From Candidatus Xenobia bacterium (GTDB lineage: Bacteria; Vulcanimicrobiota; Xenobia; Xenobiales; QWHO01): DNA of 64,000 nucleotides. Position numbers: made by a program. The number at the start of each line of letters is the position of its first letter. Position 1 is the first letter of the stretch. Shown here in pieces: positions 30,301 through 36,300 of the stretch. Location of the stretch: the NCBI GenBank assembly GCA_045863235.1, contig BTUM01000018.1, positions 1 through 64,000 on the forward strand. The letters run 5' to 3'.

Positions 30301-33300
30301 TGGGCAAGGACCCGCTGGCGGTGGCGCTGGCCGGTCTGAACGGGCGCATGGTGGCCGACAAGCCGGTGATGGTGCGGCCGGTGCGAACCCTGGAGGAGGC
30401 CTGCGAGGTGGATTGCCTCTACGTTGGCGCCTCGCGGGCCGCCCAGCTGCCTTCCATTCTGGAAGCGGTCAGCAAGTATCCGGTGCTGACCGTGAGCGAT
30501 CTACCCGGCTTTGCCGAGAAGGGTGGGGCCCTGGGGCTCTATCGCGACGCCGACCGAATTCGCTTTGCGGCCAACCTGCGCAGTCTGCGCCAGAGCGGAC
30601 TCAAGGTCAGCTCCCGGCTGCTCAGCCTGGCCCGGATCGTCGACCGCGATCCGCTGCGCAGTCACATCATCGAGATCGCCATGGACCCCGAGGCCTTTGT
30701 TCGCGCCGCTTCCGCCACCGGACGCTGATGTGCTCGCACAATCTGACGAAAGCGCTGTAAAGTACCAGGCCAAAGGCCTTGCCAGCTCCTGATGGCCAGA
30801 CTGCTCGTTGCCCTGACCGCCCATGGTTTCGGCCATCTGGGCCAGTCAGCCCCCATCCTGAACAGCCTTCGGGGGGTCGAGCTGATCCTGGCCACCACCC
30901 TGCCGCAGGCGGTGCTGGAGCGTCACCTGACGGTGCCGTTCACTCGCATCGAGCGAGCTCTGGACGTAGGAGTGCGCAACCAGGACGCCCTCACGGTGGA
31001 CCGCCCGGGCACGCGGAGAGCTTACCAGGAGTTTCACGCCCGCTACCCGAGCGACCTGGACGAGGAGACAGCCTGGCTGCGCTCCTGCGCTCCCGATGCA
31101 GTGCTGGCCAACGTCCCCTATCGCGTGGCCGAGGCGGCTGCTCGGCTGGGAATCCCTTGCCTGGCGATGTGCAGCCTGAACTGGGGGGACATCGTGGCCG
31201 GCTGCCTGGGAGAGGTCGCCTGTCTGCCCGCCATCCGCCGCGCCTACGCCTCGGTGACCGAGTTCTGGCAGCCCATTCCCAGCATGCCCATGGAAAGCTT
31301 GCCTCGCCGGCGCGAACTGGGCCTGGTGGCGCGCCGGGGTATGCGGCGCTCGCTGGGCCTGAGCGGCAAGCTCGTGCTGGTCTCGCTGGGTGGCCTGCCG
31401 CTGCCCCGGCCTTCGGGCTGGCCTGACCTGCCCGGGGTCACCTGGCTGGTTCCCGAGGGCTGGCTGCCCGGCCACCCCCGGGCGGTGGCGGTGGAATCGC
31501 TGCCGGTGCCCTTCATCGACCTGGTGGCCAGTGCTGATTTGCTGATCACCAAGCCCGGCTACGGGAGCTTTGCCGAAGCCGCCAGCCACGGCCTGCCGGT
31601 TCTCTCCCTGCGTCGGCGCGACTGGCCCGAGGAGGCTTGCCTGTGGGAATTCATGCAGCGACGAGGCGGCCTGCGCGAGCTGGGGCGAGAGGCCTTCCTG
31701 GGCGGAGACTTCGGGGCGCTGGTGGAGGAGCTGCTCGAGGAGCCTCGACCCGAGCCGATCGAGCCGGAGGGGGTCGCGCAGGCGGTCGAGCGGTTGGGAG
31801 CTTACCTGGAGGGCTGAAGCGAGCGTGCTCCCGGTGGGGCGTTCGTCGGTCCGACCCTGGAAATCAGCGCGACGACCCGGGTGTTTGCGGTGTCTGCGGG
31901 TGAGCGATCTCGAATCGGCCCTCGGCGACTGGCTGCACGGGCGGCCTCATGACCATTCCCCCGTTGACGGGCGGCTCAGGTCTCGATGGGCGGCGATGCA
32001 TGGCAGGTTGGGTGCGCGGGGGTGGTGGCACAGGCTCGGGCTCGGGCTCCATGGCTCGGGCCAGCAGGGCGGCCGAGACCGCGGCCCCGCCCGCGAAGAG
32101 CAGGTCGGCCAGGAACTGGCGGCGCTTTCGGGTCGGCTCGCTCATTGCGGAGGAGCCACCACCTGTGGCTGGGGAGCCATCACCTGGCCCGGGACCAGCG
32201 GACGAGCGCCGCCGTCGACGTTCGGCTCGACCGGCTCGCAGGTGCTGACCGGCGTGGGCGTGGGCGTGTTGACGGGCGCCACCTTGCCCATGACCTTAGG
32301 CTCGGGCTCAGGAGGGGTGTTGCCCAGGTAGCGGGCTGCCAGGGCGGCCGCGCCCAGGGCCCCGCCCGCGAACAGGGCGTCGGCCAGAAATTGGCGTCGT
32401 TTCAGTTTGTCGCCACTCATCGGGCTTTCACCTCGCCTTCCACGACCGGGGATGGGCTCTGGACGGGCCTCATCTCCCCCAGGGCCGGGGGAGCAACATC
32501 GCCCTTGACCCGGGGCGCCTCCACCTCGCCCCGCATGCGCGGGGGCTCGGGCGATGGGGTGGACGACGGACTGGGCGGCGGTGTCGGGGGCGGATCCTTC
32601 TGGGCCATGGCCCAGCGGCTCACCAGCCCGGCACCGGCCATGGCCGTGCCGGCGAACAGCATGTCGGCGATGAAGCGGCGGCGCTTGAGGCGATCTTCCG
32701 ACATCAGGCGGCCACCATCTGCAGCTCTTCGAGATACTGCCGGGCGGCTTCCACCGAGTCGCCGATCAGCTCGGCGAAGAAGCGGTGTACGCTCAACTGC
32801 TGCTGGATGTCGCCCGGCATCAGCGACACGCAGGCGCAGGGGCCGCTGGTGCCGCACGAGGACATCTTCTCGGCCGAGCAGCTGGTCACCGCCTGCACCC
32901 GATCGAGCAGCGGGCCGGTGTCCACCGTGCCTACCTGCACATCCACCCTGGTATCGGTGCCCACCAGGCGCGAGCAGGGGTAGAGCTTGCCCCGCGGCGA
33001 GACGGCCACGTCTTTGACCCCGAAGCTGCAGTGAGAGGTACGCGGCGCGCGCGGGTGCTGATCGGCAAACGGCGAGACGTGGTAGGGCTCGGGGGTGGCC
33101 ATGGAGAGGAAGACCACCCGGGCCATGTCGTGATAGACCCGGCGGGCCGTCTCGCGGGCGGCCTCGTCCCAGGCGGCCTCCATGTTGGGCAGCAGCGAGA
33201 CGCGCGAGACGCCCAGGCGGTACATCTGCTCCAGGGCGGCCGGAACCCCGCCGATGGTCTCGGGGTTGAGTACCATCAGCACGTGCAGGCGCTCGAGCGC

Positions 33301-36300
33301 TTCGGTGGCCGCCTCCAGGTTGCGCCACACCAGCTCGGAGGAGCTGCGCCCGTTGACGAAGGGGCGATGGCGGTCGTGGTCGGCCCCCATCCCGTCGATG
33401 CTGAGGGCCACCCAGAAGCCGTAATGGCGCAGGAAGTCGAGCTGCTTTTTGGTGAGGATGGTGGCGTTGGTGGTCAACGACAGCTCCAGGCGCCGGCCCT
33501 GGCGCTCTGCAAGGCGCGTGGCCAGGCGGGTCAGCCGGCTCATGGTCTTGAACTGCAGCATCGGCTCCCCGCCAAAGAACGAGACCCCCACGGTCTCCTC
33601 ACGCGGCCCGTGGAAGGCCATCTTGAGAGCCTTCCAGCCCAACTCCACCGGCATCGAGCGGTTGAACTTGTCGCCTGTGTAGCAGTAGCTGCAGGCCAGG
33701 TTGCACTGATGGGTCAGAACCAGCGAGACGCGCACGGGCTACCCCCTCGGGCGAAATGAGCTTTGCTTGCATGGTAGCAAACTCTCCCGGAATCTTCCCG
33801 GGCAACCGTCAAAAGGCCTGCGCTGGCTCGTCAGAGCAGGGGCACGAAAAGCCGGGCGACCCTGGTCCCCAGACGCGTGGCCAGGTTCAATCGCGTCAGC
33901 AGGTCGATGGAGAGCTTGCGAGCCACCGCAAAGTCGCTCGCGAGCATCGCTTCCATCTTCAGGGCGAAGGCCTGGTCAGCCACGATCAGGTTGCCCTCGA
34001 AGTTGAGGAACAAGGACCGGCTGTCCAGGTTCGAGCTGCCCACCCACGAGAGCCAGTCGTCCACCAGCATCACCTTGGAGTGGTTGTAATGGGGATACTC
34101 GTAGAACTGGATTCGGGTGTCACGAAGCTCGGGGATCAGGGCCAGCGCGGCCAGACGCATGGCGGGCTCGAAGCGAGCGGGGGGAAGAAGGATGCGCACC
34201 TCCACTCCCCGCAGATCGGCCATCTTCAAAGCTTTCAGGAGGGAAGAGTCGGGCAAGAAGTAGGGAGAGGCCAGCCACAGGCGGTGCCGGGCAGCGTTGA
34301 TGGACTCGAGGTAGGACATCACTCCAACCTGCATCGTATCGGCGGGCCCGCTGCTGAGGTAGGTGCAGGCCTGGTTTCCCCCGGCGGCCGGATGAGGCGT
34401 CCAGTCGACCGTGGGCAGCTCGCCCCGCGAGGCCCAGTAGAAGTCCTCGCAGAAGGCCAGCTGCACCCCCATCACGGCCGGCCCCTCGAGCACGGCATGA
34501 GTATCGCGCCAGGGGCCGAAGCGAGGGTCGCGGCCCAGGTGCCTGTCAGCGATGTTCATGCCTCCCACCAGGGCGACCCGCCCGTCCACCACGATGATCT
34601 TGCGATGGTTGCAGAAGTTCCACTGAAAGCTGTGACGCAGGCCTCGGGCGGCCCGGAAGGCCCTGGCATGGATGCCGGCTGCGCGCATCTCGTTGAGGAA
34701 GGCGCCTCGAATGGTGGGGCTGCCCAGCTCATCATAGACGAAGTAGACGCGCACTCCCTGGCGGGCCTTCTCGATCAGGTGTCGTTGCAGCGCCCGCCCG
34801 GAGTCGTCGTTGTGGACCTTGTAGAACAAGACCAGCACGTATTCCGTGGCCCGCTCGATCTCTTCGTGCATGCGAGCGTAGTGAGCCGGGCCGTCGATGA
34901 GTAGCTCCAGCTTGCACGAGTGGGTGAAAGGCGTGCGAGCGAGCTTCTCGAGCACCCGCAAGTTGGGGTCGTGGTAGCACCAGCGCGAAAGACCCTCCAG
35001 GATTTCGCGAATCGGCTGCGTCGAGCCTTGCCAGGCACTGGCTCTCAGCGGGTTGACGTAGCCTTCGAAGTGGGTGCTGCCGAAGACCAGGTAGAAGGGA
35101 AGCACCACGGCCGGGAAGGCCAGCAGGCTCAAAGACCAGGCCAGGGCTCCCTGGGGGGTGCTGGATTTCAAGATTGCATGCCCGGCGGCCAGCAGGCCCA
35201 GAAAGTGAAGGGTGGAGAGGACGATGAGCAAGGCTTCTCCCATGACGATGACCATAGCGGTCTTTCCGCGGCCTGGGAATGACTCAGATCAATCCCGGGC
35301 AGGAGCGATCAGGCCGGCGGGACGAATCCGTCCCAGGTGCTGAGCCGACGCTGCTTTCTGGCCGGTCTGGTGGCGCTGGCCGCGGTCCCGGCCCGGGCCC
35401 GTCAGGCTACGGTCAGCCGGGCCCAGCTGAGCGACCTGATCAATCGCTCGAGCCCCCTCGCCCGCCAGATCCTGAACGGTTACGCGGCCGCCCCCGAGAG
35501 CTTTGGGGACGGCCTGCGCATTTCCCGCCTCGATCTCTGGCCCCTGGTCGAGGGCAAGCCGATGAACGACCTGGTGCAATGCGCCAACATCCTGGTCCAC
35601 GAGACATGTCATCTCTTTGCGCGCACTCAGGCCTTCGAGATGGATCGGCGGGCCCTGAGCGAGCCCGCCAGCCTGGTTGTTTTCCCAGAGCCGGGCAAGC
35701 GACTGTTCGTGCTCGGAGGGCCCAGCTTTCCGGCCCGTCAGGCGGTGAGCGCCTGCCCCGACTACCTGCGGGCCACTTTCCGCTTCAGCACCTACTTTGA
35801 CAGCTCCAACTCCCAACACGTCTGCCAGAAGGACGGCCTTTACGGCCTGCTCGACGAGATGAGCGCCTATTACTGCGGCAGCCGGGCGGCGGTCGAGCTG
35901 CTGACCTTCTTGAGCCAGAAACCGAAGCAGTATGCCGGCCTTTGGGCCGGGCTGCTGGCCGGTCCCGACGGTACCATGGCCGCCCAGCAAGAGTTCCGCG
36001 GCTACGTGCTGGCCTATCTCACCTGGGCTCGCGAGCACGAGAGCGAGGTGTTTCGCTCGCTGATGGCCAATCGCGGTCTGTGGCAGGCTTACGCGGCCAT
36101 CCAGAAGGCTTTCGCTGGCCTGGTGGAAGATTGGTATCATCGTCTGCCGGCACTGGCTCGGCAGGTGGGGGCCGAAGTGGCCCACGGGGCCATCCTGGTG
36201 CAGGGGCGGGGCTTGCGCCTGCAACAGGAGGGCTACCTCGAGCTCAAGTCCCGGTTGGACAAGGACCGCGAGCTGGGTGCCATGGAAGCTCGTTTGAAAG

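Follow-up and report, generated by a model that had tools for sequence, protein, structure and literature searches.

The window, a 64,000-nucleotide stretch of DNA from a Candidatus Xenobia bacterium, carries a gene for a radical SAM enzyme that is translationally coupled to three genes for short proline-rich peptides. Together, enzyme and peptides most likely represent a RiPP-like peptide-maturase system. What is new here is that a related enzyme is fused to the same kind of tail in another phylum. No prior description of this enzyme-peptide system was found in a literature search that mostly excluded subscription journals.

The radical SAM gene and its three peptide genes

The genes lie on the minus strand in the order radical SAM enzyme, peptide A, peptide B, and peptide C (Table 1). 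The start of each peptide gene overlaps the preceding stop codon (TGATG, ATGA, and ATGA). The survey's finding of three 92- to 95-amino-acid peptides behind a radical SAM gene in one operon is confirmed. The fourth peptide that it had placed at C31:44187 was found again. GC3 was 0.80 to 0.92 for the genes, which is a gene-like pattern. In a comparison with genome G021, the ratio of synonymous to nonsynonymous differences was 50:15 for the enzyme and 6:2, 7:2, and 9:8 for the first 35 codons of the peptides. Four runs among the RNA-library data contained pieces of the stretch; depth was low and flat, and neighboring genes were covered too. A promoter scan of the locus found no sigma-70-like site, and a terminator scan gave two terminator-like matches, both within genes and at chance level. 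A cardiolipin synthase gene lies upstream and a convergent gene downstream, a neighborhood that is not kept beyond the genus.

Table 1. Features of the locus
Feature	Coordinates	Strand	Length (aa)	Description
Radical SAM enzyme	33735-32704	minus	343	GTG start; CxxxCxxC at 11-18
Peptide A	32704-32417	minus	95	twin-arginine leader, hydrophobic stretch, proline-rich core, no Cys
Peptide B	32420-32142	minus	92	leader as in peptide A; one Cys in C-x3-E spacing
Peptide C	32145-31864	minus	93	leader as in peptide A; no Cys
Leader elements of peptide A (twin-arginine motif, D-x-L-F element, hydrophobic region)	32618..32683	minus
Equivalent leader elements of peptide B	start 32399
Equivalent leader elements of peptide C	start 32124

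Distribution of enzyme and peptides

The enzyme was detected at an E value of ≤1e-30 in 18 of the 44 genomes of the class, G000 included, a small revision of the 16 counted before. The leader was present in 17 of the 44, 16 of them in common with the enzyme, and 25 genomes had neither. Both were missing from G017 (96% complete) and G018 (92%); other members of genus g4 have both. A peptide gene lies directly downstream of the enzyme gene at 18 of 21 informative loci, and the linkage first seen at 15 of 20 loci holds; no recognizable peptide was found at the other three (L012, L019, and L022). The same gene order occurs in three families, in line with the earlier observation that the pairing is conserved across families. 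Arrays contain up to 7 diverged paralogous peptides with a variable number of motifs, this maximum being found with a wider flank at locus L025 of genome G022, previously credited with 6. Beyond the peptides, no neighbor gene was common across genera at the 21 loci, which leaves no dedicated transporter, protease, or separate RRE gene. The survey had also found no close relative outside the class. This is correct for the phylum, where the 18 genomes with the enzyme, out of 301, all belong to the class, but not at family level: Myxococcota have a large family of fused enzymes. When GTDB contigs were scanned with this one enzyme, two real loci and four weak, unrelated matches came up. The leader was absent from long proteins in a class-wide genome search.

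Cysteine pattern and fold of the enzyme

The radical SAM motif CxxxCxxC comprises C11, C15, and C18. The C-terminal domain has four invariant cysteines, C236, C254, C300, and C302, including a CxC pair, and lacks the AuxII CxxC; judged from this pattern, it is a predicted single auxiliary cluster site. The pattern further suggests that the four cysteines fully ligate this sole cluster. SkfB has a similar cysteine set, yet an open site. An AuxII-type CxxC-x4-6-C pattern was found in none of 120 split enzymes (those encoded apart from their peptides) and in none of the 116 fused enzymes listed, compared with 32 of 35 full-length relatives. No RRE domain was found in the enzyme; the protein begins at the first beta strand, and CteB aligns only from residue 94 to 99 on.

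As the survey had recorded, the match to the NCBIfam PapB model falls below its cutoff (170.6 bits versus 340), and none of 32 relatives reached the cutoff of this family (NF047865), the best scoring 269.6 bits. PapB remains the best HMM label, but since the enzyme has neither an RRE nor the AuxII ligand set, and since the cores are not enriched in CX3D/E (see below), it is not a PapB, and "PapB-like" applies to that extent only. AmcB and FxsB models gave 65 to 68 bits against cutoffs of 370 to 425. The best sequence match in the PDB was CteB (5WGG/5WHY; E = 7.8e-43), which ranked first by fold as well (VIA Z, 32.5; 316 residues at an rmsd of 3.0); SkfB (Z, 22.5), PqqE (Z, 16.3), and EpeE (Z, 15) matched more weakly. 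Four of six residues in proximity to the catalytic site resemble CteB (Y19, F, T, and S112).

Leader and core of the peptides

Peptides A, B, and C share the leader RRxF[LI]AD[LM/A]LFxG followed by a hydrophobic stretch, so the Tat-like leader ascribed to all three is indeed common to them. The A-M-A that ends the hydrophobic stretch of peptide A is a possible signal peptidase site. The cores are 17 to 20% proline overall and, counted by a loose pattern, contain four (G59, G68, G76, and G90), three (G45, G70, and G78), and two (G62 and G76) Gly motifs in peptides A, B, and C, respectively. Their cysteine counts are 0, 1, and 0. The earlier description of proline-rich cores with repeated Gly motifs, two of them without Cys, was therefore accurate, as was the statement that the peptides match no family: no NCBIfam family was matched, and no Pfam cutoff was reached. 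Mean column identity was 65% in the leader versus 24% across the whole peptide alignment. Short precursor genes tied to a modifying enzyme, with a conserved leader and a variable core, are a general RiPP trait that is seen here. A search of the ESM Atlas with peptide B gave matches that all scored below 0.9 and included several Tat-signal clusters, which we regard as leads only; a fused tail gave no usable match. Assignment as a double-glycine leader, a type with a characteristic spacing, was rejected: the GG here does not follow the usual pattern, and the neighborhood has no conserved peptidase-transporter.

The motif Phi-x-G-x-Phi-x-x-P, in which Gly is the sole fixed residue, was about sixfold enriched over shuffles in both split and fused sets, Cys-free cores too. 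After dereplication at 55%, it occurred 98 times in 68 split cores (14.8 ± 3.9 in shuffles) and 174 times in 82 fused cores (28.5 ± 4.9). Cores without Cys (13 of 68 split and 29 of 82 fused) had similar numbers of motifs to those with Cys (55 and 53), which usually have exactly one. YG sites, as in spliceotide XYG, were found in none of 78 split cores and in 1 of the 116 fused cores listed. There was no cyclophane-type aromatic motif: W, F, and Y together make up <2% of core residues, and no aromatic position is fixed around the Gly.

Fused enzyme-tail proteins

Among the 120 listed matches to the fused profile, 116 have the same shortened Cys domain followed by a C-terminal tail, and a hydrophobic segment is present in 115 of these 116. 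Those with a name are from Myxococcota/Deltaproteobacteria. The enzyme is N-terminal to its own signal and core, and the tail has the composition of the split peptides (twin-arginine, hydrophobic, and proline-rich). Fused enzymes have A-P after the second auxiliary Cys, where split enzymes have A-R, and the Cys in the C236 window is missing in 80 of the 116 listed; given these active-site differences, the chemistry may differ. The tree does not place split and fused enzymes as sisters, and the AU test was undecided (p 0.376); the data neither establish nor reject a common origin of their shortened Cys domain. When the profile of the split peptides was compared with that of the fused tails, the match extended over 12 leader columns only. 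In a more distant group with a full SPASM domain, the enzyme is accompanied by a gene for a soluble partner, and in 9 of 10 copies the invariant block of this partner conforms to Phi-x-G-x-Phi-x-x-P; this match, one evolutionary event with a chance rate of 4 to 35% per protein, was counted in favor of our preferred reading.

The probable twin-arginine signal

All 78 split peptides, which were found with a profile already holding the RR, have RRxF[LIM] and a moderately hydrophobic region. Of the 116 fused tails listed, which were collected through the enzyme domain, 100 have RR-x-hydrophobic-hydrophobic ahead of the hydrophobic segment (65 by a strict rule), with one Lys variant, although in the region just before it Lys makes up 60 of 242 basic residues. 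The N-terminus behaves as a Tat signal: the two arginines are conserved, and Lys is avoided. TIGR01409 matched weakly (9 of 36 members; best E, 0.013), and genome G000 has TatC (C32; 212.7 bits). The sequence features make it most likely that the N-terminus is a Tat signal that also carries a family-specific D-x-L-F element. To this extent the alternative raised in the survey, that of small Tat-anchored proteins, is sound, but it is not exclusive of a RiPP-like reading.

Of 30 Tat-like ORFs in G000 (identified by our own rule), the combination of D at +6 with F at +9 is confined to the 5 that belong to the family. These positions are missing from fused tails, as expected if they serve recognition by the enzyme in trans. 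The leader model gave two further matches in G000, at C33 and C93, both with microviridin-type cores. The D-x-L-F element is kept on microviridin-type chimeras, which mostly lack clear Gly motifs, and may therefore serve export rather than the radical SAM enzyme. That such precursors carry this N-terminus as well is a hint that these uncultured bacteria have a general way of bringing modified peptides to the cell surface.

Proposed function and alternatives

We propose a two-component RiPP-like system in which the cytoplasmic enzyme would bind the precursor, probably via the D-x-L-F part of the leader, as the enzyme has no RRE. A 5'-deoxyadenosyl radical would act on each Phi-x-G-x-Phi-x-x-P repeat of the unstructured core; peptide Cys would not be needed. 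The same N-terminus would then direct export by Tat after modification, ending in release by signal peptidase or in membrane anchoring, and in Myxococcota enzyme, signal, and core would be parts of one chain, with the enzyme at its N-terminal end. The enzyme-peptide link in the survey's maturase proposal is backed by the fusions, the co-occurrence in genus g4, and the motif enrichment; the modification itself we infer. Cytoplasmic modification of the Gly motifs by the enzyme, followed by export or anchoring of the product through Tat, has, in our estimate, about an even chance. Hydrogen abstraction at the C-alpha of the invariant Gly, oxidation via the single auxiliary cluster, and capture by a nucleophile to give a cross-link or adduct is a tentative proposal for the reaction; attack at Gly C-alpha by SPASM enzymes has precedent in StsB and BlaB (PMC10288494). 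Epimerization of a residue flanking the Gly, with a spare enzyme Cys as hydrogen donor, is distinctly unlikely, and other outcomes at the Gly motifs are very unlikely.

A thioether maturase that links the core Cys to the C-alpha of a motif Gly (as in StsB/BlaB-like sactionines) or to a nearby Asp or Glu (as in PapB), possibly between chains and with Cys-free copies as acceptors only or inert, is an unlikely alternative on several grounds. CX3[DE] was not enriched in dereplicated cores (split, 11 versus 7.7 ± 2.6 in shuffles; fused, 6 versus 9.3 ± 2.8), even though peptide B has C-x3-E and the split set before dereplication gave 17 versus 6.2 ± 2.2. The spacing between a Cys and the motif that follows it varies from 4 to >50 residues. 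Fused tails contain 331 Gly motifs against 91 Cys, and 29 of the 82 fused proteins, in which enzyme and tail are present one to one, have no Cys. PapB and CteB need an open coordination site on the auxiliary cluster (PMC10177961, PMC6231123), whereas the four invariant Cys of the enzyme could occupy its only cluster; the sactisynthase SkfB, however, also has a one-cluster domain with CxC, so the Cys pattern is compatible with thioether formation (PMC6231123). The CteB and PapB matches, the CteB-like residues near the catalytic site, and the single Cys of most cores likewise favor it.

It is also improbable that the peptides are not substrates at all but single-pass membrane anchors. The short N-terminus, on the cytoplasmic side, would then tether the enzyme to the membrane (through a covalent bond if fused), the proline-rich tail would be a periplasmic spacer whose Gly motifs bind a partner, and the enzyme would act on a lipid, small molecule, or other protein. 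Insertion of a fused protein would leave the enzyme on one side of the membrane and the tail on the other, and in a model of one fused protein the tail is predicted to be disordered and not packed on the enzyme (pLDDT, <50 for most of residues 373 to 479; 11-sequence alignment). By a loose rule, only some of the sequences have an A-x-A-like cleavage pattern (fused tails, 16 of 100; split peptides, 38 of 78). Against this, the diverged arrays look like precursor arrays, the same motif occurs in a partner without any hydrophobic segment, and no conserved third gene offers another substrate. A strict twin-arginine would also imply posttranslational export, unneeded for an unstructured tail of 70 to 90 residues unless it is held for modification. 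Finally, chance neighbors or miscalled ORFs are barely credible: proline-rich ORFs are common at 66% GC (44 stop-to-stop frames in G000 have two motif-like matches in a proline-rich context, 2 being family members, in a scan mostly spurious and too noisy to list further substrates), but the translational coupling, GC3, synonymous excess, gene order, and fusions effectively refute this explanation.

Modification at the Gly motif, our preferred reading, leaves unexplained that some 70 to 80% of cores hold Cys, mostly one. The fused/split active-site differences, the nonsister tree, the 12-column profile match, and the 3 of 21 loci without a peptide also stand against it. In its fullest form, an undescribed Cys-independent backbone reaction would occur at the Gly of Phi-x-G-x-Phi-x-x-P, the Myxococcota enzyme would modify its own tail and an internal Tat signal would thread it out for display, and the Xenobia signal would be a portable RiPP export leader also used on microviridin-type precursors; we consider this whole combination doubtful. 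We know of no precedent for an internal Tat signal behind a 340-residue soluble domain. Should this reading be correct, it would add a family of radical SAM maturases that act at a site devoid of both Cys and aromatic residues, by a chemistry that belongs to none of the thioether, cyclophane, and splicing types. It would also provide a RiPP leader doubling as a Tat signal and a radical SAM fusion that modifies itself and is anchored in the membrane. Only two genes, or one in Myxococcota, make up the system, which has putative Cys-free and Cys-containing substrates side by side.

Comparison with known systems

The ranthipeptide maturases PapB and CteB have the same radical SAM core and AuxI region, and their genes also adjoin small precursor genes. 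In contrast to them, the enzyme reaches half of the curated cutoff and has a CxC but no RRE or AuxII CxxC, with A/S-R in place of H-Q after the auxiliary Cys. Its precursors are not Cys rich or CX3D/E enriched and have an N-terminal Tat-type signal. A CxC pair after a helix also provides auxiliary-cluster ligands in the Twitch sactisynthase SkfB and in PqqE, where it ligates AuxI (PMC6231123); SkfB likewise has a single auxiliary cluster. However, SkfB has an N-terminal RRE, PqqE needs PqqD, and the substrates are unrelated.

StsB and BlaB are SPASM-type enzymes acting at the C-alpha of a precursor Gly, as may be the case here, but they pair a conserved Cys with a conserved Gly in a hairpin (PMC10288494), whereas our cores have one Cys at a variable distance or none. 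Spliceases (PlpXY) and radical SAM epimerases (EpeE/YydG and PoyD) act on repeated short sites in long precursors without needing peptide Cys, as the enzyme here may, and EpeE combines a single auxiliary cluster with a Cys of its own as hydrogen donor (PMC10849128, PMC8326336). Unlike their substrates, the cores here are nearly devoid of YG sites and have Gly as the fixed residue. The gamma subunit of QHNDH offers a parallel for the inferred order of events: QhpD modifies the unstructured QhpC chain in the cytoplasm before it reaches the periplasm, QhpC being thioether linked, processed by a dedicated protease, and then exported by a dedicated ABC transporter (PMC7876137). Genes for such a protease or transporter are not conserved at the 21 loci here.

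In borosins, a methyltransferase is fused to its own core, with split forms elsewhere. The enzyme superfamily is a different one, and in our fused proteins a twin-arginine hydrophobic segment separates enzyme and core; the two systems are nevertheless alike in that a single chain combines an enzyme with a putative core and that split forms also exist.

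Organization of the radical SAM-peptide locus

The survey's finding that a radical SAM gene is followed in one array by three peptides of 92 to 95 amino acids was confirmed. The start and stop codons overlap from gene to gene, GC3 of the array genes is 0.80 to 0.92, and synonymous differences from G021, another genome of the class, exceed nonsynonymous ones; the last two features indicate that the open reading frames (ORFs) are real genes. Peptides A, B, and C share the leader RRxF[LI]AD[MAL]LFAG, a hydrophobic stretch, and a proline-rich core with four, three, and two Gly-centered motifs, respectively; only B contains Cys. 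As had been reported, the peptides matched no NCBIfam family (nor was any Pfam cutoff attained), and the enzyme scored 170.6 bits against the NCBIfam PapB model, whose cutoff is 340.

Features of the locus and of related loci (G000, source genome; coordinates without a contig name lie in the window)
Feature	Position	Strand	Remarks
Radical SAM enzyme, 343 aa	33735-32704	minus	first gene of array
Peptides A, B, C (95, 92, 93 aa)	directly after enzyme	minus	each start codon overlaps preceding stop
Filamentous-haemagglutinin-type secretion-domain protein, 1140 aa	26713-30135	plus	internal Pro/Val repeat
YfiR/HmsC-like gene	30135-30728	plus	coupled to secretion-domain gene
322-aa protein	35337-36305	plus	no family; twin-Arg-like N-terminus; precedes 118-aa protein
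118-aa protein	36330-36686	plus	above NHLP leader model cutoff (58.4 vs 50.9 bits); no obvious core
M48-family peptidase	G000:C31:43243-44169	plus	17 bases upstream of fourth peptide
M48-family peptidase, G024	L042:180-1028		likewise beside peptide
Chimeric precursor	G000:C33:24442-24777	minus	
Chimeric precursor	G000:C93:28869-29219	minus	
Chimeric precursor	L044:1580-1993	minus	
Chimeric precursor	L035:1395-1769	minus	
Second enzyme copy (L022)	G007:C3:112090-113067		one internal stop
Soluble partner of full-SPASM enzyme	L079:3132-3536		also L083, L084, L085, L086, L089, L090, L092, L095, L096

Linkage of enzyme and peptides

The enzyme was present in 18 of the 44 genomes of the class and, across a 301-genome sample of the phylum, in no others, and a 32-column leader model gave 67 matches in 17 of the 44. 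Sixteen genomes carry both and 25 neither; the leader occurs without the enzyme in G024 only (65% complete) and the enzyme without the leader in G001 and G003. Neither was found in the small genomes of family f3 (0/19 for each) or in G017, G018, and G019 of genus g4 (96, 92, and 75% complete). This co-occurrence is given without a P value because related genomes are not independent.

Of 23 enzyme matches, two at contig edges (L016 and L023) were set aside. A strict-leader peptide lies directly downstream of the enzyme at 17 of the 21 remaining loci, and at an 18th, in G001, the peptide is diverged and carries five Gly motifs; no recognizable peptide was found at L012, L019, or L022. About 400 bases past the interrupted enzyme of L022 is a short Pro/Thr-rich ORF of membrane type, which lacks the usual leader. 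Loci hold one to seven peptides, and no other neighboring gene is common across genera in the 21 loci. Genus g3 (G008, G010, and G011; L007 to L009 and L019 to L021; also L010) has two enzyme paralogues, with F-L-A-D leaders beside one and F-[LI]-T-D leaders beside the other, a pattern that could stem from matching of leader to enzyme or just from coduplication.

Orphan leader matches, away from enzyme loci, were examined at 3 sites in G000 and in 20 regions of other genomes; 6 matches fall outside the examined loci and regions. Our own filter recovered a short Pro-rich ORF in 18 of the 20 regions and none at L048. The orphan at L046 (G014:C364) has A-D-L-L-F-x-G-G without the twin arginine and Phe. 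The M48-family peptidase gene that precedes the fourth peptide (C31:44187) and its G024 counterpart was seen in none of the other loci examined; it may encode an enzyme for processing or may lie there by chance.

Enzymes fused to their tails

An exhaustive profile search also retrieved, ranked behind the Xenobia-type (split) enzymes, relatives in which enzyme and a twin-Arg, hydrophobic, Pro-rich C-terminal tail form one protein. A profile built from 11 of these gave 162 matches. Among the 120 listed, 116 have a shortened Cys domain plus tail, and four were dropped as too short or without the CxC landmark. The hydrophobic segment is present in 115 of the 116, and the tails average 23.5% Pro. 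Taxon labels among the matches listed are Myxococcota, Myxococcales, Kofleriaceae, Sandaracinaceae, and Deltaproteobacteria, the majority being unlabelled.

Split and fused enzyme domains are 33% identical over 329 aligned columns. The peptide and fused profiles match over 12 leader columns only, as expected for low-complexity cores, so our case for homologous tails is built on architecture and motif rather than on alignment. In trees of hand-chosen sequences (the Cys tail was omitted in one analysis), the split (100/99) and fused (100/100) clades are each solid. The fused clade joins full-SPASM enzymes at 93/89, and a constraint holding split and fused clades together was not rejected (p-AU, 0.376). 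Nested among the Xenobia sequences of the split clade are two proteins that bear the labels Armatimonadetes and Phycisphaerales, through either mislabelling or transfer.

Two related radical SAM enzymes, P0216 (Pendulispora rubella, WP_394835746.1; full SPASM domain) and P0280, continue as fusions into a hydrophobic segment resembling a signal, a small beta-rich domain without a Pfam match, which we take to be PEGA-like, and a Pro-rich terminus that carries a single Gly motif.

A Gly-centered core motif

Cores were dereplicated at 55% identity. The pattern Phi-x-G-x-Phi-x-x-P, defined on the split set, occurs 98 times in its 68 cores, versus 14.8 ± 3.9 in shuffles (maximum, 24); in the 82 fused cores, an independent test, it occurs 174 times versus 28.5 ± 4.9 (maximum, 43). 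Gly is the sole fixed position, with preferences for L/I/V/M/T at -2, D/E/G/K/Q at +1, M/V/I/F/L at +2, and P at +5.

PapB targets CX3D motifs, according to two reports (PMC10177961 and PMC10739248). CX3[DE] was enriched in the redundant split set (17 versus 6.2) and not in the dereplicated cores. Cys is absent from 13 of 68 split and 29 of 82 fused cores, whose motif numbers are as high as in the others; most of the remainder have a single Cys, whose distance from the motif varies and which possibly forms a disulfide dimer or one thioether or is acylated. The cores contain hardly any YG sites or aromatic residues.

A separate, more distant group of RRE-less full-SPASM enzymes was sampled at 27 metagenome loci picked by N-terminal pattern. 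Ten have an adjacent soluble protein of 130 to 195 amino acids without an informative Pfam family; its invariant block, G-G-I-R-x-P-H, fits the pattern in 9 of 10 copies, and an insert of expanded repeats occurs in one copy. Coming from one lineage, with a chance rate of 4 to 35% per protein, this match is only suggestive of a shared motif. Enzyme and partner possibly are another undescribed maturase-substrate pair.

A portable twin-arginine leader

RRxF[LIM] is found in 78 of 78 split peptides, a partly circular count since the query profile contained RR, and RR-x-hydrophobic-hydrophobic in 100 of the 116 listed fused tails, which were retrieved via the enzyme; there is one Lys variant. Of the basic residues that shortly precede the fused-tail twin Arg, one in four is Lys. 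Conservation of RR with avoidance of Lys fits Tat recognition better than the positive-inside rule. G000 encodes TatC. A rule of our own picked out 30 Tat-like ORFs in G000; the five family members are the only ones with D at +6 and F at +9, and both residues are absent from fused tails. The leader thus combines a general twin-Arg layer with a family layer, the latter plausibly serving enzyme binding in trans.

In the C33 and C93 orphans and relatives in G024 and G009, the family N-terminus is followed by a PFF..LE.Q element, then by two or three copies of T-x-x-[YH]-P-S-D, and at the C-terminus by another PFF/PFW-like motif. PFF..LE.Q and T-x-x-Y-P-S-D are microviridin leader and core motifs (PMC12848669 and PMC8939145), and the G009 chimera exceeds the Pfam Inhibitor_I10 cutoff (23.8 versus 21). 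No ATP-grasp gene was recognized among the adjoining ORFs. G000 also encodes canonical microviridin-type precursors without the family N-terminus. At least five multicore microviridin-type precursors lie on C53, C57, C84, C114, and C156 of this genome. Its eight MvdD-like ATP-grasp matches, none of which reaches the MvdD cutoff, lie on C57, C84, C53, C148, C45, and C108. The family N-terminus is therefore portable. Its place before a precursor with its own recognition element supports an export role for it and weakens the view that D-x-L-F serves the radical SAM enzyme only.

Proposed activity

We infer that the Pro-rich tail is the enzyme's substrate, modified in the cytoplasm, and that Tat then would move the modified chain out. 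Outcomes independent of Cys have, taken together, about an even chance. Among them we tentatively favor hydrogen abstraction at the Gly C-alpha followed by oxidative capture, since Gly is fixed and neither Cys nor an aromatic acceptor is required. Epimerization of a neighboring residue by analogy with EpeE (mechanism in PMC8326336 and PMC9389541) would be a rather improbable second choice. Thioether formation at Cys has precedent for Gly acceptors in StsB and BlaB; given the Cys-free cores, we consider it doubtful. That the peptides are unmodified membrane anchors seems equally doubtful.

A protective or protease-inhibiting role at the surface or in the periplasm is speculation, prompted by the microviridin chimeras and by the RiPP richness reported for "Candidatus Eudoremicrobiaceae" (PMC9259500), in the available part of which no enzyme-peptide system of the Xenobia type is apparent.

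Comparison with known systems

In the full-text literature within reach, a scope short of most subscription journals, we found no account of this radical SAM/peptide family, of a core joined to its radical SAM enzyme in one protein, or of a RiPP leader with a Tat signal; radical SAM RiPP atlases lay outside that scope, and their supplements may contain these clusters. The available part of a review of RiPP leader proteases (PMC10885120) does not mention Tat, and those of PMC13692751 and PMC10849128 concern other systems.

The enzyme lacks an RRE. All 44 sequences compared have C236, C254, C300, and C302, and none of the 120 split or 116 listed fused enzymes has the AuxII CxxC; one auxiliary cluster therefore is likely. 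Most listed fused enzymes lack an equivalent of C236 and have A-P, not the A-R of split enzymes, after the second auxiliary Cys. In a fused-protein model, from a shallow alignment, the enzyme domain is folded and the tail disordered. With a score at half the cutoff, no RRE, no AuxII CxxC, and no CX3[DE] enrichment, likeness to PapB does not amount to membership. The Xenobia enzyme and its peptides are a real, undescribed form of radical SAM RiPP system with putative chemistry. A CxC pair ligates AuxI both in PqqE, where it is fully ligated, and in the sactisynthase SkfB, where a site is open (PMC6231123), so the Cys pattern is compatible with more than one chemistry. The enzyme model (pLDDT, 94) most resembles CteB in fold (Z, 32.5), followed by anSME (28.8) and ChlB (27.8); of six positions near the catalytic site (as defined in PMC10288494), four are CteB-like, and the final two are not.
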